Part shown: piece by piece, positions 6,558 to 46,540 of the stretch | How positions within the stretch are numbered: the stretch's first letter is position 1 | Layout of the letters: every line of letters starts with the position of its first letter | Assembly (NCBI GenBank): GCA_020444425.1 | Contig: JAHLLB010000021.1 | Location: 5,038-69,037 of the forward strand | From: a bacterium | GTDB taxonomy: Bacteria > Electryoneota > Electryoneia > Electryoneales > Electryoneaceae | DNA length: 64,000 nt | Reading direction: 5' to 3' | Made by a program: the position numbers and the translations under genes | The notes under the pieces: generated by a model | What the model was told of the DNA's origin: nothing | The model's database searches: none | What the model saw: only the letters and a program-made list of their open reading frames with translations

Positions 6558-6639
6558 GCGCGAGTGGTGGAATTGGCAGACACGCAGGTTTTAGGCACCT
6601 GTGCCGAAAGGTGTGGGGGTTCGAGTCCCCCCTCGCGCA
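6558..6639 (+). tRNA. tRNA-Leu (anticodon TAG), class II with long variable arm
   Basis: Hand-folded cloverleaf. Acceptor GCGCGAG/CTCGCGC plus discriminator A; D-arm GTGG-AATTGGCAGA-CACG; anticodon stem CAGGT/ACCTG with loop TTTAGGC (anticodon TAG); variable arm TGCCGAAAGGTGT; T-arm GGGGG-TTCGAGT-CCCCC. CCA is not encoded. Confidence 0.85.
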
Positions 6640-7394: not shown

Positions 7395-8756
7395 GTGAAC
7401 GTCAAGGAACCGGTACAGGAAGGTTGTGTGGTGCGGATCGGCATTGAACTGACCGCCGATGAACTGCAACCGCATGTCGAAGAATCGTTGAAGACGCTGC
7501 GCAAGACGGCGAAGCTTCCGGGCTTCCGTCCGGGCAAGGTGCCGGACAAGATTCTCAACCAGCGTTTCAGTCGTCAGATCAAGGAAGATGCCGCGGAAGA
7601 GGCGATCAAGGCGATGCTGCCGGACGCGTTGAAGGAAAGCGGCATCAACCCACTCGCGCTCTCCCCCGTCGAGGACACGGAATACGCTGAGGACGGCAGC
7701 TTCAGCTTCACCGCCGTGCTCGAAGTCGCGCCCGAATTCGACGTCGACAAGTGGAAAGAGGCGTCGGTGGAACGTTTCGTCGTCGACATCACCGACGAAG
7801 ACGTGAAGCGTCACATTGAGACGATGCAACGCGACAAGGCCGTTGTCACCGAGGGCGACGAAAATTCGACCGCATCAGCGGGCGACCGGTTGACCGTCGG
7901 AATGCAGGAAGTGGACAAGAGCGGTGTTGCGATTGTCGGCAACAAGCGCGAAACGCTGGTCTTCGAACTCGGCTCGGGTTACCTCGGCAAGGACGCCGAC
8001 GACAAGCTTCCGGGCATGAAGATCGACGAAACGCGCCGGATCGAAATCCAGGAAGACGAACCGCAGATCATCGAAACCCCGAGCGAGGGTGTCACGTTCT
8101 GGGACGTTCACCTGAAGTCGTTGGAGAAGATTGAACTGCCGGAGTTGAACGACGATTTCGCGGCGCAGGTGGACGAAAAGTTCGAAAGCTATGCGGACTT
8201 TGAGAAAAACGTCCGCGATCAGCTCAACACTTTTGCCCAATACCAGGCGAACCAGCGTTCGGCAGGCTCTTTGCGTGAGGCAGTGATCGGAGCGTACGAT
8301 TTTGAACTACCGCCGTCGCTGCTGAACCAGACCCTGGAAGACATGATCCAGCGTCAGATCCAGGAGTCCGGCAACGCGTACGATGCGAACACGCTGCGCC
8401 CGTACCTCGCGCCGCTGGCCGAACAGGAACTGAGATGGTTCTTCCTCCGCCGCCGTCTGATCGAAGCGGAAGGTATTGAGGTCACGGACGGAGAGATCGA
8501 GCAGCAGGTGGAGAACTACCACAAGGCTCATCCGGAAACCGACCTCGAGCAGTTAAAGCTGATGTTCAAGACCGGTGAGAAACGTGAGCAGCTCGCTGAC
8601 GAGATCATCATGGGCAAGGTGATGGAAGTGCTGCGAAACGGCGTCAAGTGGGAAGACAAGCCGGTTTCGTTCATGGACATCCTGATGGACGCTCGGGCTC
8701 AGCAAGTGCAACATGGGGCCCATGAGCACGATCATGACCATGATCACGCTGATTAA
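7395..8756 (+). CDS. tig: trigger factor
   Basis: GTG start. N-terminal ribosome-binding signature KLPGFRPGKVP, length 453 aa, and classical position upstream of clpP-clpX-lon. Confidence 0.9.
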   Translation: MNVKEPVQEGCVVRIGIELTADELQPHVEESLKTLRKTAKLPGFRPGKVPDKILNQRFSRQIKEDAAEEAIKAMLPDALKESGINPLALSPVEDTEYAEDGSFSFTAVLEVAPEFDVDKWKEASVERFVVDITDEDVKRHIETMQRDKAVVTEGDENSTASAGDRLTVGMQEVDKSGVAIVGNKRETLVFELGSGYLGKDADDKLPGMKIDETRRIEIQEDEPQIIETPSEGVTFWDVHLKSLEKIELPELNDDFAAQVDEKFESYADFEKNVRDQLNTFAQYQANQRSAGSLREAVIGAYDFELPPSLLNQTLEDMIQRQIQESGNAYDANTLRPYLAPLAEQELRWFFLRRRLIEAEGIEVTDGEIEQQVENYHKAHPETDLEQLKLMFKTGEKREQLADEIIMGKVMEVLRNGVKWEDKPVSFMDILMDARAQQVQHGAHEHDHDHDHAD

Positions 8757-8815
8757 ATTAGGGTATTCGGGAAAATCGTTTCCTGGCTGTCACCCAACGG
8801 GAGTTTGGAGATTTC

Positions 8816-9445
8816 ATGGAACAGACGGTTGGACAGTTGATTCCGATGGTGATTGAGCAGACCGGTCGTGGCGAACGTGCGTTCGACATTTACAGCCGCT
8901 TGCTCAAGGAACGGATTATCTTCCTCGGCACGCCGGTCGACTACCACATGGCGAACCTGATTATCGCGCAGTTGCTTTTCCTCGAGGCTGAGGATCCGGA
9001 ACGCGACATCAGCATTTACATCAACAGCCCCGGCGGATCCGTCAGCGACGGCCTCGCCATCTACGATACCATTCAGTACATCCGTCCAGATGTGCAGACG
9101 ATCTGCATTGGCCTGGCAGCCTCGATGGGCGCGTTGTTGCTCGCAGCGGGTACCAAGGGCAAGCGCAGCTCGCTGCCGAACAGCAAGATCATGATCCACC
9201 AGCCGTCCGGCGGTTTTCGTGGCACAGCGGCCGACATTGAGATCCACGCGCGCGAAATCCTCAAGGAACGCGAACGTTTGAACCGCATTCTTGCGCATCA
9301 CACCGGGCTGGATGTGGAGCAGATCTCGAAGGATGTCGACCGTGACAACTTCCTCGATCCGCAGGAAGCGTTGGAGTACGGGATCATCGACAAGATTCAG
9401 ACCTCTGATCGCAGTGACAAGAAATCGGATGATGACAAGAAGTAA
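8816..9445 (+). CDS. clpP: ATP-dependent Clp protease proteolytic subunit
   Basis: [38 protein letters not shown] (catalytic Ser), MIHQPSGG. Confidence 0.95.
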
Positions 9446-10729: not shown

Positions 10730-13083
10730 TGGCAGACCCTGAAGCCGCCAACGGGGAGGATCTGCAACAGACCATACCCGACCTGCTTCCTGTTTTCCCG
10801 GTCCGAGACCAGATCATCTTTCCCCGCATGGTGTTCCCGCTGCTCGTGGGGCGTGAGGGCACGCTCCGCGCGGTCGAGGCGAGCATGATGCAGGAGCGCC
10901 TGCTGCTGCTTCTCGCGCAGAAGGATTCCGGGTCCGACGACATCACGTTTGACGAACTGTACCAGGTCGGTGTCGTCGCCAAGGTCGTGCAGGTGATGAA
11001 GCTGCCAAACGGGCTGGTCAAGGTTCTGGTCGAAGGCTTATCTCGTGCGCAGGTGGTCGAACCGGTCGATCAGGAAGGCTATCTCGGCGCCCGTCTCACC
11101 CCTGTTTTCCCCAGTGACCGTCAGGATATCCGCCTTGAAGGCGCGATGCGGCATGCGATCACGTTGTTCAAGGAATATGTTCCGCTCAACCGGTCGATTC
11201 CGGACGAGCTGCTGTATGCCATCGAAACGCTGAAAGATCCCGACCGCATCAGCGATTTTCTCGCCGCACAGTTGACCGTCCCCTACCAGCGCAAGCAGAA
11301 GATTCTCGAAGCGATTTCGACGTACGAGCAGTTCATCGAAATCGCGAACCAGATCGCGCACGAAATCGAAGTGCTGCAGGTCGAGCGCTCGATCGAAAGC
11401 CAGGTTCGGGAACGGATCAGTGTCTCGCAACGCACCTTCTTCCTGCAGGAACAGCTGCGCGCGATCAAACGCGAACTGGGCGACGAAGCCGAGGACGAGT
11501 TTGGCGACATCAACGCCTACCAGAAGAAGCTTGAGGAGACCAAGCTCAGCGCGGAAGCAAAGGAAAAGGTCGTGGAGGAGCTCAACCGGCTGAAGTCGAT
11601 GCCGATGATGTCGCCGGAAGCGACGGTTGTGCGCAACTACATCGACTGGGTGCTGGCGATTCCGTGGAACAAGAAAACGCGGGACCGGCACGACATCGCC
11701 AAGGCGCGCGAGATCCTCGACAACGATCATTACGGTCTCGAGAAGCCGAAGGATCGCATCCTCGAACACCTCGCGGTGCTGTCGCTGGTCAAGCAGATCC
11801 GTGGGCCGCTTCTGTGTCTCGTCGGACCGCCGGGGGTTGGCAAAACCAGCCTCGGGGCGTCGATTGCGCGGGCATTGAATCGCAAGTTCGTGCGCATCAG
11901 CCTCGGCGGCGTGCGTGACGAAGCCGAGATCCGTGGCCACCGTCGCACCTACATCGGCAGCCAGCCAGGCCGCATCATCCAGTCGATGAAGAAGGCCGGG
12001 GTGACCAACCCGGTGTTCCTGCTGGACGAAGTCGACAAGATGAGCACGGATTTCCGTGGTGATCCCGCCTCCGCCCTGCTCGAAGTGCTCGATCCGGAAC
12101 AGAACCGCACCTTCTCCGATCATTTCCTCGAGGTTGATTACGATCTCAGCCAGGTGATGTTCGTGTGCACGGCGAACACGCGGGACGGCATCCCGTTGCC
12201 GTTGCAGGACCGCATGGAGATCATCGAGCTGCCGGGTTACCTGACCGAAGAGAAAATGCACATCGCGGAAGGCTTCCTGATTCCGAAGCAGCTCAAGGAA
12301 CACGGCCTCGACTCGAAGAAAGTACGCTTCACACGGGACTCCGTGCTGCGCATCATCGAGGAATACACGCGTGAAGCGGGTGTACGTGAACTGGAACGCA
12401 TCATCGCGCGCGGGGTACGCCGTGTCGCACGCCGGCGTGTTGAAAACAAACGGCTGAAGAAGGCCGAGGTGATCGGCGCGGGCCGGCTGAAGTCGTTGCT
12501 CGGCCGATCAACCCACTACAAGCAGGAACTCGACCTCAAGCCGATGGTCGGCGGCGCGGTGGGATTGGCGTGGACACCCGTCGGTGGCGAAGTCCTGCGC
12601 ATCCAGGTCCGGACCATGCCCGGCGAATTCAAGCTGACCCTGACCGGACGCCTCGGCGACGTGATGAAGGAGAGCGCGCAGGCGTCACTCAGCTACATCC
12701 GCAGCCTCGCGCATGAGCTCAACATCCCGCAGGAAATGATCGACAAGCGCGAGATCCACATCCACATCCCCGAGGGCGCGGTGCCGAAGGATGGACCATC
12801 CGCCGGTGTTACGTTGGCGACAGCCCTGCTCAGCGCGTTGACAGGAAAACCGGTGCGCGGCGACCTCGCGATGACTGGCGAAATCGGCCTGCAGGGCGAA
12901 GTTCACCCCGTCGGCGGTATCAACGAAAAGGTGATGGCCGCACAACGTTCCGGTGTGAAGACGATCCTGTTGCCCGAACGCAACCGTCCCGACTGGGATG
13001 ACCGTCCGCGCGGCGTCGGCCGTGGGCTCGAGGTGCATTTTGTGTCGCGTGTGGATGAGGTGTGGGAACGGGCGATGATATGA
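10729..13083 (+). CDS. lon: Lon protease (LonA)
   Basis: ATG overlaps the clpX TGA by 1 nt. Lon N-domain ([13 protein letters not shown]), Walker [10 protein letters not shown], protease motif PKDGPSAGV (catalytic Ser). Confidence 0.95.
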
Positions 13084-13090
13084 ACTAATC

Positions 13091-13119
13091 TTGATTATCT
13101 TAAAGGAGCTTTGTATACT
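13091..13119 (+). promoter_or_regulatory. candidate sigma70-type promoter of the AT-rich island operon
   Basis: TTGATT (13091..13096), a 17-nt spacer, then TATACT (13114..13119). It lies ~30 nt upstream of the AGGAGG/ATG of the small ORF. Confidence 0.4.
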
Positions 13120-13150
13120 GACAAAAGAGAAAGAGCGACAAGGAGGAATT

Positions 13151-13360
13151 ATGCCTGAGACATTGTTGCCTTCGTTGGCCGTCAAGCGAAGTGAATCTTC
13201 ATTGCTTGACAAGAATCCGCTGCTATCAACCATTTCAACCAATGAGTCAGAAAAGCCCGATAGAGACAAGCACAGAATATCGCAGTCGTTGCGCACCTCT
13301 ACATTGACAGACGTTCGCTCAGAAATGCCTGATAGAGACAAACATAAAAGAATAGCTTGA
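13151..13360 (+). CDS. 69-aa candidate RiPP precursor peptide with two repeated core motifs SE(K/M)PDRDKH
   Basis: Perfect SD AGGAGG (13141..13146) lies 4 nt before the ATG, and the stop is 7 nt before the ATP-grasp ATG. The two repeats (13247..13279, 13319..13354) differ by 3 synonymous changes, 1 nonsynonymous change and one in-frame codon, which favours coding. The ORF track offers a longer TTG-start version, 13091..13360. Confidence 0.55.
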   Translation: MPETLLPSLAVKRSESSLLDKNPLLSTISTNESEKPDRDKHRISQSLRTSTLTDVRSEMPDRDKHKRIA

Positions 13361-13367
13361 TACTCCA

Positions 13368-14303
13368 ATGCTTACAATCCTCACCAGCGATGACGATGCG
13401 ACATCTGACTTTTTCTGCGAATTTCTTGATGCTGAAAAAGCAGATTATAATCGTCTAAACGTTAATACTTTGGTATCATCAAATTCAATTATGATTAATA
13501 ATAATACTACTGATTATACTATTGGCACTAATAGACATAAATTATATAACAATGGTATTGTTTGGTATAGAAGACCTTCTCCACCAAAACTCGCTAGGTT
13601 TAATTCAGATGAACGAGAATTTCTATACAGAGAGTGGCTAGAGATAATTGATGCAATATCTCTATGTCTATGCGACTCCATTTGGATTAACTGGCCGTAC
13701 AATAATTCATTAGCGGATAACAAGATATACCAAATGAGAATAGCAGACAAATGCGGATTTAATGTTCCTTTGTGGATATTGACTAACTCGTATTCAGATA
13801 TTTATGAGTTTGTTATGCTTCACCAAAGCCTTGTAAAGCCATTATCATACGGATCATTCGGACTAGATGAATCAATGGCCATTTATTCAACGATATTAAA
13901 TCCGACGGACATTGAAGAAAATAAAGTATCTCACACACCAGTGTTATTTCAAAAAGTAATTCATAAAGCTTACGATGTACGTGTTACTGTTTTTGGAGAT
14001 AAGGTATTTGCTCACAAAATTTGTCCTAAAGATAATTTTAAGAAACATATAGATTGGCGTGCATATGAACCAAATAGGCTAATTATGAGTGATATAAATA
14101 TTCCTGAATCTGTAGAAGTATCAATTATGAAACTTATGTTGCATTTTAAACTCCGTTTTTCAGCTATTGATTTTTCCGTAACAGAGAAAAATATTTGGTA
14201 TTTTTTAGACTTAAATCCTAATGGTCAGTGGGGATGGCTTGAAATCGCATGCAATACACCTATGCGCAGATCATTTTACGATCATATATTGAGTTTATCA
14301 TGA
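13368..14303 (+). CDS. ATP-grasp ribosomal peptide maturase, MvdC/MvdD-like (graspetide ligase family)
   Basis: The family pattern is present throughout: MLTILTSDDDATSD, VWYRRPSPP, NKIYQMRIADKCGFNVP, LVKPL, DVRVTVFGDKVFA, IDWR, FSAIDF, FLDLNPNGQWGWLE. Very AT-rich codon usage, unlike the flanks. Confidence 0.75.
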   Translation: MLTILTSDDDATSDFFCEFLDAEKADYNRLNVNTLVSSNSIMINNNTTDYTIGTNRHKLYNNGIVWYRRPSPPKLARFNSDEREFLYREWLEIIDAISLCLCDSIWINWPYNNSLADNKIYQMRIADKCGFNVPLWILTNSYSDIYEFVMLHQSLVKPLSYGSFGLDESMAIYSTILNPTDIEENKVSHTPVLFQKVIHKAYDVRVTVFGDKVFAHKICPKDNFKKHIDWRAYEPNRLIMSDINIPESVEVSIMKLMLHFKLRFSAIDFSVTEKNIWYFLDLNPNGQWGWLEIACNTPMRRSFYDHILSLS

Positions 14304-14974
14304 ATATTAGTACATGGACAATTGATAGTCCCAGAGAATATTTGAATCTTATAAGATTATCTTTCTTTCATATTCCCCCTCAAAAACTATATTCTGATAT
14401 AGATTGGAAGTTAATGGAAGAATATCTAAATAGCACAAGCACTGAAACATCAAAAAATGAAGAAGGTCTGATGGAAGAATACACTCTGCTACAAGAGGAA
14501 CACAAAAGCATTGAACGTTCAAAGGAATCTATCGAGTCAAAAGCGAAAATGGTGATAGCCCAATCAAGCACGATTATCATTGTGCTGTCATCTCTCTTTG
14601 CATTATTAGCATATAACACATCAAACTTAGGATCATTAAAAATATTTATCGTCATAATACTATCTCTTGTATTTTGGATTTCTATCAATTATTTCTCTGC
14701 AACAATTTATTCTATTCATGCAATACAGGTTGGATATTCTGTAAAAACACACGTTATAGAATCTGTAAGAGGATACGCACTGATGAAGTTATATGTAGAA
14801 GATAAAAGAGAAATCATAATATCACACAGGTTCATCACGATGATAAAGGCGACTTACTTAAAAGTATCTCTTGCTTTTTTCAAAATAGCGATGATATGGA
14901 CGGTAATAACGATATTAACAGTTGTATTATTTATAGGTACTAGCATATTCTCTACTAGCCTAGTCAAACAGTAA
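14300..14974 (+). CDS. membrane protein of unknown function (charged helical N-terminal half, three predicted TM helices)
   Basis: ATG 14300 overlaps the ATP-grasp TGA (ATGA). ORF track gives 14249..14974. Charged segment EEYTLLQEEHKSIERSKESIESKAK is followed by hydrophobic stretches IAQSSTIIIVLSSLFALLAY, IFIVIILSLVFWISINYFSATIY and LAFFKIAMIWTVITILTVVLFIG. Confidence 0.65.
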   Translation: MNISTWTIDSPREYLNLIRLSFFHIPPQKLYSDIDWKLMEEYLNSTSTETSKNEEGLMEEYTLLQEEHKSIERSKESIESKAKMVIAQSSTIIIVLSSLFALLAYNTSNLGSLKIFIVIILSLVFWISINYFSATIYSIHAIQVGYSVKTHVIESVRGYALMKLYVEDKREIIISHRFITMIKATYLKVSLAFFKIAMIWTVITILTVVLFIGTSIFSTSLVKQ

Positions 14975-15175
14975 TATGCTTAGATAAGATTTATATATTG
15001 TTATTGCAAAGAAAAAATTCCAAATCAACACACTTTATTAGGTATTGAAATAGTTATAAAAACCAAGCTCTACTCCCTCCTCAACTACCTCGTCGCGTCC
15101 TGTTTTGCGACTCGGACGACCTGTGCGATGTTGACCAGAACAGCGGCCCACTGATAGTCCATACAAGGCTGCGTA

Positions 15176-15210
15176 TTTCCTCACAGCTCAAACCTCACAC
15201 CTCATACCTC
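15176..15210. repeat. heptanucleotide tandem array (5 units, NNNNCTC; GAGGTNT on the reverse strand)
   Basis: tttcctc acagctc aaacctc acacctc atacctc, ending 4 nt from the stop codon (15215..15217) of the minus-strand gene. Confidence 0.7.
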
Positions 15211-15214
15211 CACT

Positions 15215-15688
15215 TCACCCATACACAGGCGGATCGCGGCGGGAATCTTCGGGCAGGATGCGGGTCAGTGTCAGGGTTAACGTGCCGTCGTCGGTGAGGT
15301 CGCCTTCGACGTCGTCCAGGGAGTCGTTGGCGAAATCGAGGCTGGCCAGTTCGAGCGAGCGGGCGGTCATGCCGTGCGGGCGGAAGGTTCCGGTCGCGGC
15401 GTCGGCGGGGATGTCGTCCAGGTGGCACTTGATGCTGAACTGCACCCGGTTGGCGAGCACGACCATATCGACACGGAATGTCGACTCGCCGTCCTCATTG
15501 AGCAGACCCTCGATCACCTCTTCACACACCCCGAGCACCGCGACGATGATCCGTTCCAGCTCGAACGCATCGGTACGCAGCCGGCGCAGGGTGACATCGA
15601 CCTTCTCCGCGATCATGCCAAGGAAGGACGTGTCGGCGGGGTATTCGAGCCCCCAGCGGATGGAGAAGACGTTACGGTTCTGGCCCAT
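15215..15688 (-). CDS. hypothetical protein (157 aa)
   Basis: GC3-rich, protein-like composition (MGQNRNVFSIRWGLEYPADTSFLGMIAEKV...). The overlapping plus-strand ORF 15258..15728 is Ser/Arg-rich and looks like a shadow. Confidence 0.55.
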   Translation of the reverse strand: MGQNRNVFSIRWGLEYPADTSFLGMIAEKVDVTLRRLRTDAFELERIIVAVLGVCEEVIEGLLNEDGESTFRVDMVVLANRVQFSIKCHLDDIPADAATGTFRPHGMTARSLELASLDFANDSLDDVEGDLTDDGTLTLTLTRILPEDSRRDPPVYG

Positions 15689-15692
15689 GGAT

Positions 15693-15790
15693 GACGGTAC
15701 TCGGTTGTCGGTTGACGGTTGTCGGTAATCGGTGGCCGGTAAACGGTATTTGGTTTACCGTAGCCCGTAGCTCGCAGCCCGCAGTCCACG
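15693..15790. repeat. heptanucleotide tandem array, 14 degenerate units
   Basis: gacggta ctcggtt gtcggtt gacggtt gtcggta atcggtg gccggta aacggta tttggtt taccgta gcccgta gctcgca gcccgca gtccacg, with strict 7-nt register. It is followed by cgtctgcaagca, a truncated copy of the GTCTGCTTGCAGAC hairpin module. Confidence 0.75.
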
Positions 15791-15855
15791 TCTGCAAGCA
15801 AATGTGAACCTGATCGTCGTTGCTGACAACTGATTACTGAGCACAGAGAACTGTC

Positions 15856-16506
15856 TCACAGAATCCCCATCGAGCGGAGGAAGCCGGCGTCGAGATACGG
15901 ATTGGTTTGTCCTTCTTCGCGGATCGTGGTGGACGGTCCGTGGCCGGGATGCACCTTCGTCTCGCCGGGCAACGCCAGCAGTTTGCTACGGATGCCGTCA
16001 ACCAGTGCGCGTCCATCGCCACCGGGGAAATCAAACCGTCCGATCCCGCCCGCGAACAACGTGTCGCCTGCGAACACATGCCCGCTGTCGTGGTAAAAGA
16101 CGACATGGCCCCGGGTGTGACCGGGAATGTGGATGGTTTCAAGGGTCAGCTCGCCCCAGGTCAGCGTGTCGCCGTTGTCCACGGTCCGTGTCGGGTTGCC
16201 GACATTGAGATCTGCCCCGAAATGTACTGCGAGGTTCAGTTCCGGGTTGGTCAGCATCGGAGCGTCCTCCGGATGGCAGACCACCTCAGCCTTCGGGTAG
16301 CGGTCCCGTAGTTCCGCGACGGCTCCGATGTGGTCGGCATGGCCATGCGTGATCAGTATCGCGGCGGGTTCGATTTCCCATTTGTTGAACGTGTGGACGA
16401 AGCGTTCCGCTTCCGCGCCGGGATCGATGATAACGGCGTCGTTTCCCACGCGCGCGATGAACGCGTTGGTTTCCAGATCTCCCACGGTCAGGCGAACGAT
16501 GTCCAT
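15856..16506 (-). CDS. MBL-fold metallo-hydrolase (hydroxyacylglutathione hydrolase-like)
   Basis: ORF track gives 15856..16539; start set at MDIVRLTVGDLETNAF. Motif THGHADHIG plus downstream HIPGHTRGH and GDTLF. Confidence 0.8.
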   Translation of the reverse strand: MDIVRLTVGDLETNAFIARVGNDAVIIDPGAEAERFVHTFNKWEIEPAAILITHGHADHIGAVAELRDRYPKAEVVCHPEDAPMLTNPELNLAVHFGADLNVGNPTRTVDNGDTLTWGELTLETIHIPGHTRGHVVFYHDSGHVFAGDTLFAGGIGRFDFPGGDGRALVDGIRSKLLALPGETKVHPGHGPSTTIREEGQTNPYLDAGFLRSMGIL

Positions 16507-16597
16507 GACAACCTCAAAGCGTGCAGAAATGAAAAACATCGGTCATGCAGAGCATAACCGATGTTACAAACTGGTCACGGATCAGCCAACCGGCTGA

Positions 16598-31968: not shown

Positions 31969-34830
31969 CTATTTTTTTGTGGGATTGCCAATTTCCTCAC
32001 CCGATAGACCAGGTTCACGTACAAGAAGTTCGCGGATGGAACTGATGTCCGGTAAATCCAGAGTTTTTCGAAATGCATCATCTATTTCATGTCGAACTGG
32101 ATCTACATCAAGTTCGGCGATGGCCAATAGTTGCTTCTTGGCAAGTACATCGTAAGCCTCGCCAAGTTCAGTTAGTATTTCCTTTGACAAATCCTTAACA
32201 TTGAGAACCTGCATCGAAGCCCATGCAGGTTTCTTCATTTGCATCCATGAGCCTCTAGTTATTGCACGTCGTCCATAGTAGGACAGCACTCCGAAGGTCG
32301 AGTTGAACCAGAGTAATAAGGCTTTTCGCTGATTAGCTGAGAGTTTGGCGTCATTGAACGCCCACCAAGTATTGCCGAGAACCTCCTTGTCAAACCCTGT
32401 CGCGATAGTACGATGTGTGTTTGTCCAGAGCCTTGAGACCAGCAGCGTTTTTCCCGCTTTCGACCAAACAGCATTAGCGTCTTTGAGCTTTCTTTTTGGA
32501 AGGGCTTTTGTTCGCGCAATCAGTGTGGCATTTGGCTCTTGAGCAATTGTCTGAACTTTTGTCGCGTCATGATTCCAGAACGCGGTATACGGTGACCACG
32601 TGCTTGCTGAATCATCCACTTCAAAAGCATCGAAAATATCTCTGACATCATAACCAAGTTCGCCAAGCTCATCGAGACGGCACAACTTAACTTTCTTCCC
32701 TGTTGAGCTGCCGGGAACGCGAATTTCATGGTTGTTGTTCAGCTGCCAGTACGCTTGCATCAAATGGCGCTGTGCAAATATGGCACCTGTCCAATTATCG
32801 CCACCTTCGGGAGCCGGAAGGCTAGCCATCTCACCAATGACCCGCGTACCGGTTCTCACGATTCTAGTTTCTCCTACCCTTTGTCCGACATTTGCGATTT
32901 CGCAAGCAATTCGGGACGCACAATCTAACGCTTCATGAATCGTGCGTGGGTTGTGCCACAAGTTCACGTAGATTGTCGTTCCAGGCTTCTCTTTCACCTG
33001 CAAACGCCGAGCAATAAACAATATCTCGGACAAATGGGTATTTTCTGAGAAGTTGGGTCGCTCATTGTCATGGCTGGTAATGACCACCTCTAAGTGAAAT
33101 TCAGTCGCAATAAGTCTTCGTATAGCACGCCAAGCTTCGCCGGTTGCTAAAGCCACTGGAAGGACAAAGGCAATGCGTCCCCCCCGTTTCGTATGAAGAT
33201 TTGCCAACGGCACAAACAGTGCCCCAAGCCCTGCGGTACCACTCACAGAGAACATTTTCGCCTGTTTAGAAAGAGCTTTTTGCAGTGCCGAACGTTCCTG
33301 AGGCAGGGAACCAAAAAGCCGGTTTCCATAACGGCTACTGGTAAATGGCGGATTCAAAACGCAAAGGTCGAGTTTCGGTACTTTCGCGTTAGTGTAGGTT
33401 GATTTTGATGCGCCTGTGCGAACCACATCCAACTGTGTATCGTCAAGTGCAAACTGAGTTCTAATCTCTTGACCTTCGAGGAAGTCGAGACTTCCAAGAC
33501 GCGGACGCCCATGGTCCAGCCCCATCGGCATGACGAACAGGTTCATGTTGCGGAAGGCCACGTCCGGGGCTAGGAGTGCTAGCGTAGAAGCGGTAAGATG
33601 AACCGCTGTAGGCAGAACATCATAGCCATGCATGACATTTTGCATAAGGGTTTGGTGAAGTATCGAGACATCTTTATCACTTAGAGAAAGATCCTGCTCA
33701 GCGCGGTCCCTGATGTGTCGATCAGTCAGTGCTTGCGCCGCAGCCATAAGAAGTGTACCAGTACCACAAGCGAGATCTGCAACTTTAAAATCAGCTAGCT
33801 CGCGTGGAGAGGCAAAATCATTTTTCCAGTCCAGTGCAAAAACAAGTTTTAGAAGCAAAGTAGCAGCTGAGACTGACGTATAATAGGTTCCAAGAAACTT
33901 TGCATCATGCAAAAGCCAATGGTATATGCGGCCCATAAGATCATGCCGCAAAGCAGCCTGCTGTCGACAAATAGCTTGTGCTTCACCTAGTAATGCCTTC
34001 ACTGCGAGCGTTGAATTCGGACTTGATGGAAGCTCGTCCAATAACCGTTCACCGAGCTGAAAGATTGGGACGTAATTGATATTCTCCCAAATCCAGTGCC
34101 AATGTTTGGATGTCGCGTCAACTACATCGGTGTTTTTTTCAATCTTTCGGAGTGTTTCGACCCGAGTGTCCGTTATAGAAAGCTGTTCCTGGAAAATGAA
34201 AGCGTTTGCAAGAACAAGTGCCGAAACTTTCGCAGCCGTATCGCGCCGATCAATTGTATTTGCTGGTTCCTCGCCTTCCGGTGGAATGATACCGAGAATA
34301 CGTGATAGACGATCACAGGCACCGGGCTGTCCATTCCAAAGTCGCGCGACTGTCTCCAACTGCGCCGATAGAGATTTAGCCACTTGCTCGACGATATCGT
34401 CTTGGGACAGCGCTTCCTGGACGCGTCTGAGCGCATCCATGAGTGAGGCTGGCGTTCCTTCGAACCACTCTTCACTTTCGTGAGATTCTGATACGATTCG
34501 ATAACGAAGTTTTGCGTTTTCAAGTGTTTCGATGATCTTGGTGGTTGGTGCAGAACGAAGTTCTAACGGATAGACAGCAGCAGCGGCTATGTGCGCAATG
34601 CCACTCGAAACGCGTTTACGCGCATCTTCGAGAACAACATCATAGGCAGAAGGATGATCGGTGAACTTTCCCTCTATGACGATACGCAAACCACGCATCT
34701 CAAATATCACATCAGGTCGATGTTTGCCGTGAACATGAATGGTCTCAGCGTCGGCAGTGACACCAAGCTTTGAAATAAGTATTGCGAGCTGAGTGTTGAC
34801 TGCTTCTTCGCGGTTTCTTTGCGCATTCAT
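31969..34830 (-). CDS. Type IIG/IIL-like restriction-modification enzyme (N-terminal PD-ExK nuclease-like domain + gamma-class N6-adenine DNA methyltransferase + C-terminal specificity region)
   Basis: 953 aa. N-terminus HGKHRPDVIFEMRGLRIVIEGKF (PD...ExK, HSDR_N-like). SAM motif I VADLACGTGTLLMAAA, motif IV LCVLNPPF, and a long C-terminal region. Lower-GC, differently biased codon usage compared with the flanking murA and dnaE. Confidence 0.7.
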   Translation of the reverse strand: MNAQRNREEAVNTQLAILISKLGVTADAETIHVHGKHRPDVIFEMRGLRIVIEGKFTDHPSAYDVVLEDARKRVSSGIAHIAAAAVYPLELRSAPTTKIIETLENAKLRYRIVSESHESEEWFEGTPASLMDALRRVQEALSQDDIVEQVAKSLSAQLETVARLWNGQPGACDRLSRILGIIPPEGEEPANTIDRRDTAAKVSALVLANAFIFQEQLSITDTRVETLRKIEKNTDVVDATSKHWHWIWENINYVPIFQLGERLLDELPSSPNSTLAVKALLGEAQAICRQQAALRHDLMGRIYHWLLHDAKFLGTYYTSVSAATLLLKLVFALDWKNDFASPRELADFKVADLACGTGTLLMAAAQALTDRHIRDRAEQDLSLSDKDVSILHQTLMQNVMHGYDVLPTAVHLTASTLALLAPDVAFRNMNLFVMPMGLDHGRPRLGSLDFLEGQEIRTQFALDDTQLDVVRTGASKSTYTNAKVPKLDLCVLNPPFTSSRYGNRLFGSLPQERSALQKALSKQAKMFSVSGTAGLGALFVPLANLHTKRGGRIAFVLPVALATGEAWRAIRRLIATEFHLEVVITSHDNERPNFSENTHLSEILFIARRLQVKEKPGTTIYVNLWHNPRTIHEALDCASRIACEIANVGQRVGETRIVRTGTRVIGEMASLPAPEGGDNWTGAIFAQRHLMQAYWQLNNNHEIRVPGSSTGKKVKLCRLDELGELGYDVRDIFDAFEVDDSASTWSPYTAFWNHDATKVQTIAQEPNATLIARTKALPKRKLKDANAVWSKAGKTLLVSRLWTNTHRTIATGFDKEVLGNTWWAFNDAKLSANQRKALLLWFNSTFGVLSYYGRRAITRGSWMQMKKPAWASMQVLNVKDLSKEILTELGEAYDVLAKKQLLAIAELDVDPVRHEIDDAFRKTLDLPDISSIRELLVREPGLSGEEIGNPTKK

Positions 34831-45085: not shown

Positions 45086-46540
45086 ATGAAATATTCTACC
45101 ATTATCACCCTGTTCCTGCTCGTGACTTTCTCCGTAATTCCCTCTTTTTCACAACCTCCGCAGCGAGAGTGGAGAAGGAATTGGGGGTTTCCCTACACAA
45201 ACGAAGCTGCCTACTCTGTGGCAAGCCTTCCGGGGAATGGCTTTGTCGTGGGTGCAAGTACGCGCATCTTCAGCAATTCTGGCTTGTTACTTGGTTTTAC
45301 CCAAGCTGGCAATGTGATTGGATATCAACCAGAGCTGCCTACTGGACGGATCTACTCGATTGCCACTCTACCTGAAACAGGCACGGCATGGATTAGTAAT
45401 GGCAACAGCATCATCTTGGGTTTCACACAGTTTTCAGGTGAAACGCCTTGGAGCCATACGCTCCCAGGGTTTTCTCGAGTTGTCACAAATAGTAACAATA
45501 ACATTGTTACCGCTGTGTCAACTGACAATGTGATCGGAGCACCGGTTGAGCTGAGAACTTATAGCAATACAGGCACCTTACTGACAACAGAAAACTACTA
45601 CTTGGATAATAACGGCGAATCAGCAATTTCTTCTTTATCAATAACAAGTTCGGGACAATATCTAATGAGTGGTGTGATTTCAATTAACGATGAATTACAA
45701 GGATGGACCTTGAGACTCGATGAAAATGGTGATTCTTTGAATGTCATTTATTATCGTACATACATGCACACCAGTCCCGCGCACGATAACGGCTTTTATG
45801 CTTTTTCACTCCTAACCAATGAACTTGCGAGATTCAGTGCTACGGACGAACTCGTCTGGGAGACAAATGTCGACCATTATCATGAGCCGGATGCCCCAGT
45901 CCCAACCGCCGATGGTGGAGTAATTGTACTTGGTTTTACAGGTGATGGACCGCCTTCAGCCGTAGCGGACAAGTTCGATGCTGCTGGTAATGCACTTTGG
46001 AGTTATCAGACTCAAGGGCCTTGGTTTGAGGATACGTACGCCTATGACGGGATCGGTCTTGAAGATGGCTACCTGTTGGTCGGAAAGACTGATTGGCCGC
46101 AGCAGGATTACAATTATTCGCAAATCTGGGTCGAACGACTCGGTTTGGACATCACGGATCAACGGATTCTCGCCTGGCCAGCTCGGGATAGTGTTGTCGT
46201 CCTGCCGGGGGAATCGTTCCGTTGGAATGGCCGGCTGAAAAATAACCTTTCTGAACCAGTAACTACTGATGTCTGGGTTCAGGTGTTAACGCCTGGTGGC
46301 ACACTCACGGACCCGGTTCACCTTTGGGAAGATGTTGCTTTGTCTGCCGATGAGGTGATTCAGGTTTCACCATTCCAATATGTACCTACATGGGTTGAAC
46401 CGGGAACGTATCACTATCTCGTCCGGATCGGTGACTATCCGCAGGAGAGGTATGAGGATGTATTTCAATTCACTGTGGCCAGCACCAGTTCAACCAGTAG
46501 CCCTTCAGAACCTGACGATTGGCGGCTTCGGCTGCGTTAA
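45086..46540 (+). CDS. secreted hypothetical protein (lower-GC gene)
   Basis: Signal peptide MKYSTIITLFLLVTFSVIPSFSQ. Repetitive beta-rich sequence with no recognised motif. Codon usage is visibly less GC-rich than the neighbours. Confidence 0.6.
   Translation: MKYSTIITLFLLVTFSVIPSFSQPPQREWRRNWGFPYTNEAAYSVASLPGNGFVVGASTRIFSNSGLLLGFTQAGNVIGYQPELPTGRIYSIATLPETGTAWISNGNSIILGFTQFSGETPWSHTLPGFSRVVTNSNNNIVTAVSTDNVIGAPVELRTYSNTGTLLTTENYYLDNNGESAISSLSITSSGQYLMSGVISINDELQGWTLRLDENGDSLNVIYYRTYMHTSPAHDNGFYAFSLLTNELARFSATDELVWETNVDHYHEPDAPVPTADGGVIVLGFTGDGPPSAVADKFDAAGNALWSYQTQGPWFEDTYAYDGIGLEDGYLLVGKTDWPQQDYNYSQIWVERLGLDITDQRILAWPARDSVVVLPGESFRWNGRLKNNLSEPVTTDVWVQVLTPGGTLTDPVHLWEDVALSADEVIQVSPFQYVPTWVEPGTYHYLVRIGDYPQERYEDVFQFTVASTSSTSSPSEPDDWRLRLR

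Follow-up and report, generated by a model that had tools for sequence, protein, structure and literature searches.

The DNA analysed here, which we call the window, is a 64,000-nucleotide (nt) stretch of contig JAHLLB010000021.1 (assembly GCA_020444425.1) from a bacterium of the Electryoneota. Directly behind its lon gene, which stops at 13083, three genes follow one another on the plus strand: an open reading frame (ORF) for a 69-amino-acid (aa) precursor peptide, with a leader (approximately residues 1-25) and two core repeats (13151 to 13360); the gene for a 311-aa ATP-grasp enzyme (13368 to 14303); and the gene for a 224-aa protein with three transmembrane (TM) segments (14300 to 14974), which we refer to as the membrane partner. 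We consider it probable that these genes form a horizontally acquired, divergent graspetide cassette of the thuringinin branch at a post-lon hot spot, in which the enzyme acts at the membrane partner and the peptide is let out. The genes are tightly coupled, with a 7-nt gap between the peptide and the ATP-grasp and an ATGA overlap between the ATP-grasp and the TM protein, and direct reading of the sequence places an AGGAGG ribosome-binding site (13141 to 13146, plus strand) 4 nt ahead of the ATG at 13151. An earlier sequence-only reading of the window had described these ORFs and spacings correctly, and all of the ATP-grasp motifs that it quoted are present in the translation. The promoter-like TTGATT-N17-TATACT to which it pointed is also present (13091 to 13119, plus strand; 9/12 consensus match). 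This element is weak evidence because promoter-like matches abound in AT-rich DNA, with 17 in the AT-rich block compared to 9.8 expected. A minus-strand 227-aa ORF (12685-13368), which overlaps both lon and the peptide gene, was set aside as spurious.

The sequence-only reading had judged the approximately 2 kb after lon to be an AT-rich, horizontally acquired island. Both parts of this claim were borne out, the first by GC content in 300-nt and 1-kb windows and the second by the GC profile together with a comparison to the closest genome. GC content in 300-nt windows from 13050 to 15149 is 30-44%, compared to 53-65% in the flanks. The 1-kb windows 13001-14000 (38.7% GC) and 14001-15000 (31.2%) are the two lowest in the 64 kb, where the remaining windows have 46-64% GC and the genome approximately 60%, and no other part of the window departs as far in composition as the post-lon block, with its AT-rich core at 13084-15060. 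In the closest genome, L006, lon is 92% identical at the nucleotide level and 97% at the amino acid level. Because blastn homology to L006 ends at 13079 and resumes, collinearly, from 15177, the replaced segment was set at 13080-15176 (no strand assigned); it spans 2097 bp in the window and 569 bp in L006. The final 115 bp or so of this insert are GC-rich, yet have no match in L006. As the earlier reading had noted, there is no sign at the island borders of an integrase, a nearby tRNA or a convincing flanking direct repeat; tRNA and repeat searches found as the only tRNA of the window a tRNA-Leu at 6558. An Rfam search of 12500-15800 detected no RNA family, and the fold of the island's 3' tail is not special (z = 0.35). 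An identical island is present on a short-read contig common to six samples, and Lon relatives place the host near metagenome-assembled genomes of Calditrichota. The foreign, horizontally acquired origin of the island DNA is supported by these observations.

Other cargo occupies the same site in related genomes. Within the 569 bp of L006, a HicA toxin and a HicB antitoxin are encoded (8442-8848), and the equivalent site of L008 (8582-9814) encodes HicB and an AT-rich 306-aa FRG-domain protein; the expect values (E) of the Pfam matches at these sites are 2.8e-20, 1.3e-13 and 7.3e-17. Because L006 and L008 carry these genes there, the interval that separates lon from a conserved 157-aa gene appears, from the genomes compared, to be a variable hot spot at which small mobile cargo is swapped. 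The 157-aa gene (15215-15688, minus strand) encodes an acidic protein with no Pfam family and is kept in both L006 and L008.

The 311-aa protein is predicted to be a graspetide-type macrocyclase. It matches TIGR04187, a model for ATP-grasp maturases of ribosomal peptides, at E 5.6e-58 across residues 3-305, with further NCBIfam matches to MvdC (6e-44), grasp-with-spasm (9e-30), MvdD (1.3e-29) and RimK (1.6e-4). The best solved structures in a search of the PDB are the graspetide cyclases CdnC (3e-24), AMdnB and MdnB/C. These profile and structure matches agree with the earlier proposal of a peptide maturase rather than a RimK/GshB-type enzyme. The protein has a pre-ATP-grasp domain and belongs with the MvdC/MvdD/SAV_5884 clade of maturases, and its nearest relatives all have the MvdD pre-ATP-grasp domain. 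It forms a singleton cluster whose nearest relatives among 5.8 billion proteins are 30-33% identical, and identity is flat, at 27-33%, across every subgroup. Twenty-two invariant columns are common to the window enzyme and 14 relatives. Judged by its sequence, the enzyme is a divergent lineage outside the curated subfamilies. PADLOC has no match for it.

In the precursor, core repeat 1, STISTNESEKPDRDKH, occupies residues 26-41 (13226 to 13273, plus strand) and core repeat 2, TSTLTDVRSEMPDRDKH, residues 49-65 (13295 to 13345, plus strand). The two are linked at the DNA level by a 31-nt direct repeat, D1 (13247-13277 and 13319-13349), with 84% identity and a 72-nt spacing of exactly 24 codons; because three of the five mismatches between its copies leave the amino acid unchanged (CCC/CCT, AAG/AAA, CAC/CAT), D1 can be argued to be translated. 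The D1 repeat and the core pattern of the family both support the repeat-core precursor that had been proposed. The pattern TxTx(2-8)[ED]..Dx[DE] occurs twice in the window peptide, as in precursors at homologous loci, and the second core, TSTLTDVRSEMPDRD, agrees residue for residue with the family consensus TxTxTx[VI][RK]xExPDxD (compare the cores at L051, L055, L108 and L042). Adjacent to the ATP-grasp, the locus has a small precursor gene with two cores of the form T/S...E...DxD, rich in Thr/Ser as donors and Asp/Glu as acceptors; tandem Thr/Glu/Asp core repeats of this kind, here two, are a mark of the thuringinin branch. The peptide has no significant match in Pfam, NCBIfam or PADLOC.

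The three TM segments that had been predicted for the membrane partner are supported by hydropathy and by an AlphaFold2 model. After a helical N-terminal part (residues ~1-80) come TM1 and TM2 (~82-137), then roughly 50 aa of basic loop, and finally TM3 (~187-223). The model is all-helical (mean predicted local distance difference test score 70.8); a long helix leads from the N-terminal part into TM1 and is followed by TM2 and by a further long helix that has TM3 at its end. Because the TM2-TM3 loop is basic, the N terminus is likely to be inside; the N-terminal helices would then be cytoplasmic, in agreement with a natural fusion in Chitinophaga rupis described below. Foldseek found nothing below E 1.7 for the model in the PDB. 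Searches with the window TM protein alone gave little: no significant match in Pfam, NCBIfam or PADLOC, only itself in a word-index search, and two weak matches, P0046 and P0045, in an exhaustive phmmer/HMMER search. Profiles were more sensitive. In leave-one-out tests, in which the window protein was compared with the other 61 partners of the family, it scored 48.4 bits against a profile built without it, compared to a maximum of 7.8 for 300 shuffles. The partners at two thuringinin-type loci, L046 and L039, scored 27.7 and 30.7 bits against a profile of the other 60, and shuffled sequences never exceeded 8.2.

The sequence-only reading had asked whether homologous loci keep the small ORF and TM protein in synteny, and our survey found that they do. 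We scanned the 80 best ATP-grasp relatives from species-representative genomes with local profiles. In 55 of the 80 loci, the gene immediately downstream, in the same orientation, is a partner-family ORF; L096 has a partner match on the opposite strand only, and 24 loci have none. Of these 24, 17 come from Actinobacteria and are of the SAV_5884/tgmB type, and two are truncated where their contigs end; when both sets are put aside, the partner is present in approximately 90% of the loci. Of the ten best ATP-grasp matches, nine have the partner, and the remaining locus runs off its contig. Wherever the closest relatives allow a judgement, both the TM partner and repeat precursors are present. 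Start/stop overlaps between the ATP-grasp and the partner are the rule across the surveyed loci, and repeat precursors with two to four copies of TxTxT..[RK]xE..DxD lie upstream in most of them. An initial suggestion that the trio is not conserved, from L001 and L004, which have no TM partner, was overturned by this survey.

Individual loci show the same arrangement. In L036, L037 and L039, the ATP-grasp is immediately followed by a protein with the build of the window partner, namely a charged helical N terminus, then a TM pair, and a last TM separated from the pair by a basic loop of some 50 residues. P0046 (E 3e-4) overlaps the stop codon of its ATP-grasp and lies downstream of a 90-aa two-repeat precursor whose cores, LTKTKIRSESPD and ETYTCVRSESPD, are clearly related to DVRSEMPD in the window. 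The trio also occurs on plasmids of P. aeruginosa, Croceicoccus and Sinorhizobium, where the cores follow the pattern LLTKTxxxxExDDD. In Chitinophaga rupis DSM 21039 (L083, 4980-6584), enzyme and partner are joined in a single 534-aa ORF, with the ATP-grasp at residues 8-324 and the TM module at 358-526.

The partner family varies in its appendages. Across Pfam and NCBIfam, the 62 partners share no consistent family besides collagen repeats in five; one matches SLATT_1 at 1.2e-3. Those five partners (L036, 1239-2072, and four others) have C-terminal collagen-like G-x-y repeats (Pfam Collagen, best E 9.7e-14), which would face the cell exterior given the inferred topology. Bacillus-type partners have a C-terminal domain of about 120 aa in place of the collagen repeats, and the P0049 class (L119, 5948-7153), found mainly in sphingomonads, comprises partners of about 380-400 aa with an extra domain and weak AbiZ matches (E 0.015-0.03). 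The second weak match to the window protein, the 174-aa P0045 (L040/L041; E 9e-5), has no adjacent ATP-grasp, and its gene is preceded by that of a 306-aa protein without a family match. Either the TM module may serve further systems as well, or P0045 may be a false positive.

The sequence-only reading had considered the trio an undescribed system. This claim is refuted. [quoted passage not shown] Among graspetide ATP-grasps, Makarova et al. 2022 (PMC8939145) defined a thuringinin branch, and their "Branch_Thuringinin" combines precursor cluster 13 with membrane-protein cluster 18; a transport role for these membrane proteins is a guess made there because the loci have no other exporters. L046, a TgnA-like locus on the Bacillus thuringiensis plasmid pHS18-2, encodes an ATP-grasp, a 361-aa TM protein and then the precursor, and it is through this thuringinin-type locus that we equate our partner family with "cluster 18". 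Because of the leave-one-out scores obtained with L046 and L039, we regard the window trio as a member of the thuringinin-type family, and its partner, by profile similarity, as belonging to the membrane proteins of thuringinin loci.

These comparisons suggest a course of maturation. The 69-aa precursor would present its N-terminal leader to the ATP-grasp, which would bind it and activate Glu/Asp side-chain carboxylates in the two core repeats with ATP as acyl phosphates. The activated carboxylates would then be joined to Thr/Ser hydroxyls inside each repeat, closing macrolactone rings. Thuringinin has two rings per core, and by analogy we infer about two rings per repeat here, with 18 Da lost for each; lactams through Lys would also be possible. 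Because translational coupling is nearly obligatory and a natural fusion exists, the enzyme is expected to act at the membrane partner, presumably at the inner face of the membrane and docked on the partner's cytoplasmic N-terminal helices. The crosslinked peptide would most likely leave through an oligomer of the partner. This product is likely to inhibit proteases, as do, to our knowledge, all characterised graspetides. We rank an exporter or scaffold role for the partner first, above a PycTM-like effector role, because transport has been proposed in print, there is no other exporter, and products of this type are stable and resemble protease inhibitors.

Several observations weigh against this interpretation. 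The ATP-grasp scores under the curated cut-off of every NCBIfam maturase model, with 196.6 bits against a cut-off of 350 for TIGR04187 and 150.4 against 425 for MvdC. At position 281, probably a metal-binding position, it has Asp (LDLNPNGQW) where 14/14 relatives have an invariant Glu (FLExNPNGQW); the remaining invariant residues (Lys, Arg, Asp and Asn) are retained. The leader, MPETLLPSLAVKRSE, contains no aromatic residue and so has neither the P[FY][IL]xx[FY]-type motif of most family leaders nor the leader motif of the thuringinin branch (P-hydrophobic-hydrophobic...aromatic, for example PYIxxY or PLILDY). The island encodes neither a protease nor a transporter, and we know of no transporter fold for a three-TM protein such as the partner. 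The export role is only a guess in the literature (PMC8939145). Finally, the only recurrent database match of the partner family is to PycTM, a cell-killing effector.

This last match is the starting point for the strongest alternative, in which the trio is a conflict or abortive-infection module. The three-TM protein would be a PycTM/SLATT-like pore-forming effector, and the ATP-grasp and peptide would form the sensing or signalling part, with the crosslinked peptide opening the pore or keeping it closed during phage infection; in a variant, the graspetide would block a phage protease in the cell. The PADLOC PycTM model PDLC02364 is matched by 13 of the 62 partners at E<=1e-3 (best 1.8e-7), PDLC02365 by 11 and PDLC02363 by 7, in alignments that cover most of the 160-position profile (for example, positions 21-153). 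Scattered single members match 2TM effector models of the cyclic-oligonucleotide-based antiphage signalling system (CBASS). When the 62 sequences were reversed as a control for hydrophobic bias, none matched PycTM. Three partner-family proteins also carry a precomputed match in a protein database to PF18967, which we take to be the Pfam PycTM/DUF5706 family; a local Pfam-A scan of the same three gave no PF18967 at E<1, which may reflect a difference in model version or filter. The window TM protein itself matches PycTM at E 0.8 only, so it is tied to PycTM by way of the family profile.

The genomic setting also bears on this alternative. The sequence-only reading had also asked whether the trio sits in defence islands. 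Defence-type genes are frequently present near the cassette in a survey of about 37 loci, which covered the two nearest long ORFs on each side, picked by length (136 proteins), and had no matched control set. Pfam matches among these neighbours include AAA_21, UvrD helicase, nSTAND3, GmrSD, HerA, AAA_15, ThsB-TIR, ResIII, Schlafen-type helicase, Type ISP and DUF3375, as well as phage integrases, and PADLOC matches include GajB (E down to 1e-241), HEC-06, HEC-08, MADS and DRT components. By a rough count without a matched control, at least about 18 of the 136 are of defence type, a share that seems far above that expected for random genes. Copies of the cassette lie on a plasmid-like contig that also encodes a relaxase and a primase, beside transposases, and in the temperate Leptospira phage (or plasmid-prophage with ParB) vB_LalZ_80412-LE1 (KF114876.1). 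The latter holds a complete trio (L127, 3173-5074) of a 106-aa three-core precursor, an ATP-grasp and a 207-aa partner that scores 102 bits. The thuringinin-type locus L039 (1-3004) directly follows an OLD-TOPRIM ATPase and a UvrD helicase (Gabija-like). Just before its ATP-grasp lies a gene for a 206-aa peptidase that has a precomputed match to Peptidase_U49 and, in our own scan, one to Peptidase_M48 (1.1e-4); the peptidase could be a leader/core protease or a Lit-like effector.

The PycTM likeness of the partner family and the defence-island context, together with the HicAB and FRG-domain cargo at the post-lon site and the carriage of the cassette by plasmids and a phage, lend the conflict-module alternative some support, and we regard it as possible, if rather unlikely. 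Against it, the match of the window protein to PycTM is insignificant, neither a cyclase nor a cyclic-nucleotide-binding domain is present (Pfam and PADLOC detected no Pycsar cyclase among the three island ORFs), and the ATP-grasp is absent from PADLOC. In addition, published thuringinin-type precursors are matured into stable peptides of the protease-inhibitor type, variable islands also house clusters for bacteriocins and for peptides made on the ribosome and modified after translation (RiPPs), and the neighbourhood survey was uncontrolled. On profile similarity and gene neighbourhood, a PycTM-like effector role for the partner, in phage defence or addiction, takes second place as a tentative proposal. 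An extension of this proposal to the whole type is somewhat speculative: the partners of thuringinin and possibly plesiocin loci would be PycTM/SLATT-like pore-forming effectors, and the trio a mobile immunity or addiction system in which the crosslinked peptide gates the pore as a cyclic nucleotide does in Pycsar or CBASS. A literature search found no paper linking an ATP-grasp with SLATT or PycTM, and the PycTM matches, the defence, plasmid and phage setting and the swapping of post-lon cargo go beyond the literature searched.

It is improbable that the trio serves to stabilise mobile DNA, as an addiction module in which a membrane toxin is held in check by a short-lived or crosslinked peptide and loss of the island kills the cell. 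The HicAB toxin-antitoxin pair at the hot spot of the sister genome, the copies on plasmids and on a plasmid-prophage with ParB, and the resemblance of the partner to pore-forming effectors would fit such a role, but a 311-aa ATP-dependent enzyme would be unusual in a toxin-antitoxin pair, and precursors with up to four cores are hard to square with antitoxins. A primary-metabolism ATP-grasp (RimK, glutathione synthetase or similar) beside unrelated neighbours can be dismissed, for although some homologues are annotated at source as "RimK-type ligase", RimK matches at 1.6e-4 compared to 5.6e-58 for the maturase model, the best structures are graspetide cyclases, and the precursor and partner are conserved.

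Three other genes of the window deserve mention. A host gene at 15856-16539 (minus strand) encodes a metallo-beta-lactamase-fold protein with a weak match, below the cut-off, to the anti-Pycsar phosphodiesterase Apyc1 (E 8e-4). It lies 900 bp from the PycTM-like partner, and because it is also present in relatives without the island, this proximity is probably coincidental. A 953-aa ORF (31969-34830, minus strand) that encodes an N6 DNA methylase domain, in a stretch of 48-50% GC within the approximately 60% GC window, is possibly another acquired restriction-modification or defence gene. A 484-aa ORF without a Pfam match (45086-46540, plus strand) lies in a kilobase of 46% GC and is likewise a compositional outlier.

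The preferred interpretation, a thuringinin-branch graspetide cassette, would add to this class a very divergent example from a phylum that has been poorly sampled, with a core (...E-x-P-D-R-D-K-H) that is unusual in being basic. Its enzyme is no more than 33% identical to any of the 5.8 billion proteins searched, and its partner is not detectable by pairwise search. The membrane protein of plesiocin- and thuringinin-type loci emerges as almost obligatorily coupled to the enzyme, once fused to it, remotely similar to a Pycsar effector, and often found in a defence or mobile setting. The function of this partner and the purpose of graspetides in the producing cell can now be tested. Apparently, no report has linked a widespread graspetide membrane partner with the membrane effectors of anti-phage systems.

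Comparison with known systems places the island most clearly. With plesiocin (group 2) and microviridin (group 1), it would share macrocyclisation of a ribosomal precursor by an ATP-grasp. The plesiocin core, unlike that of the window, is TTxxxxEE. Microviridin loci combine a pair of ATP-grasps with a GNAT and an ABC/C39 exporter, all of which the island lacks. The expectation in the sequence-only reading that graspetide loci typically add a GNAT and/or a C39-peptidase ABC exporter holds for microviridin-type loci only. Like PycTM of Pycsar, and the related CBASS 2TM and SLATT effectors, the partner is a small helical membrane module, but its companions are an ATP-grasp and a peptide in place of the pyrimidine cyclase (PycC) and cyclic-nucleotide-binding domain of Pycsar.

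The gene order is matched by group 5/6-type omega-ester peptide loci, for example those on plasmids of P. aeruginosa RW109, Sinorhizobium and Croceicoccus and those of Bacteroidota, in which a precursor and an ATP-grasp are followed by an overlapping three-TM protein of about 220 aa. These loci are frequently plasmid-borne or beside transposases. Their cores differ from those of the window, having three or four repeats of LxTKTxxxxExDDD or TETFTKxxGExxDSD. Their ATP-grasps are 28-33% identical to the window enzyme, and their TM partners, at 11-19%, are recognisable by profile only.

The thuringinin cluster of Bacillus thuringiensis (graspetide group 3 of Lee et al.; TgnA is its precursor and TgnB its ATP-grasp) and the island have in common a single MvdD-type ATP-grasp, tandem Thr...Glu...Asp-x-Asp cores in the precursor, and translational coupling of the enzyme to a homologous membrane protein; neither has a transporter or protease. 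The differences are mostly of order and detail. The precursor comes first in the window and last in L046 and L039; it has two cores, compared to three or four in thuringinin, with a basic PDRDKH tail where thuringinin has DPDEY, and a leader without the PYI..Y motif. The window partner, at 224 aa, has none of the N- and C-terminal extensions of about 120 aa found in the 361-aa Bacillus partner, and the ATP-grasps are only 27% identical. Sequence and synteny together make the locus a well-supported candidate for a mobile, divergent graspetide cassette of the thuringinin branch.

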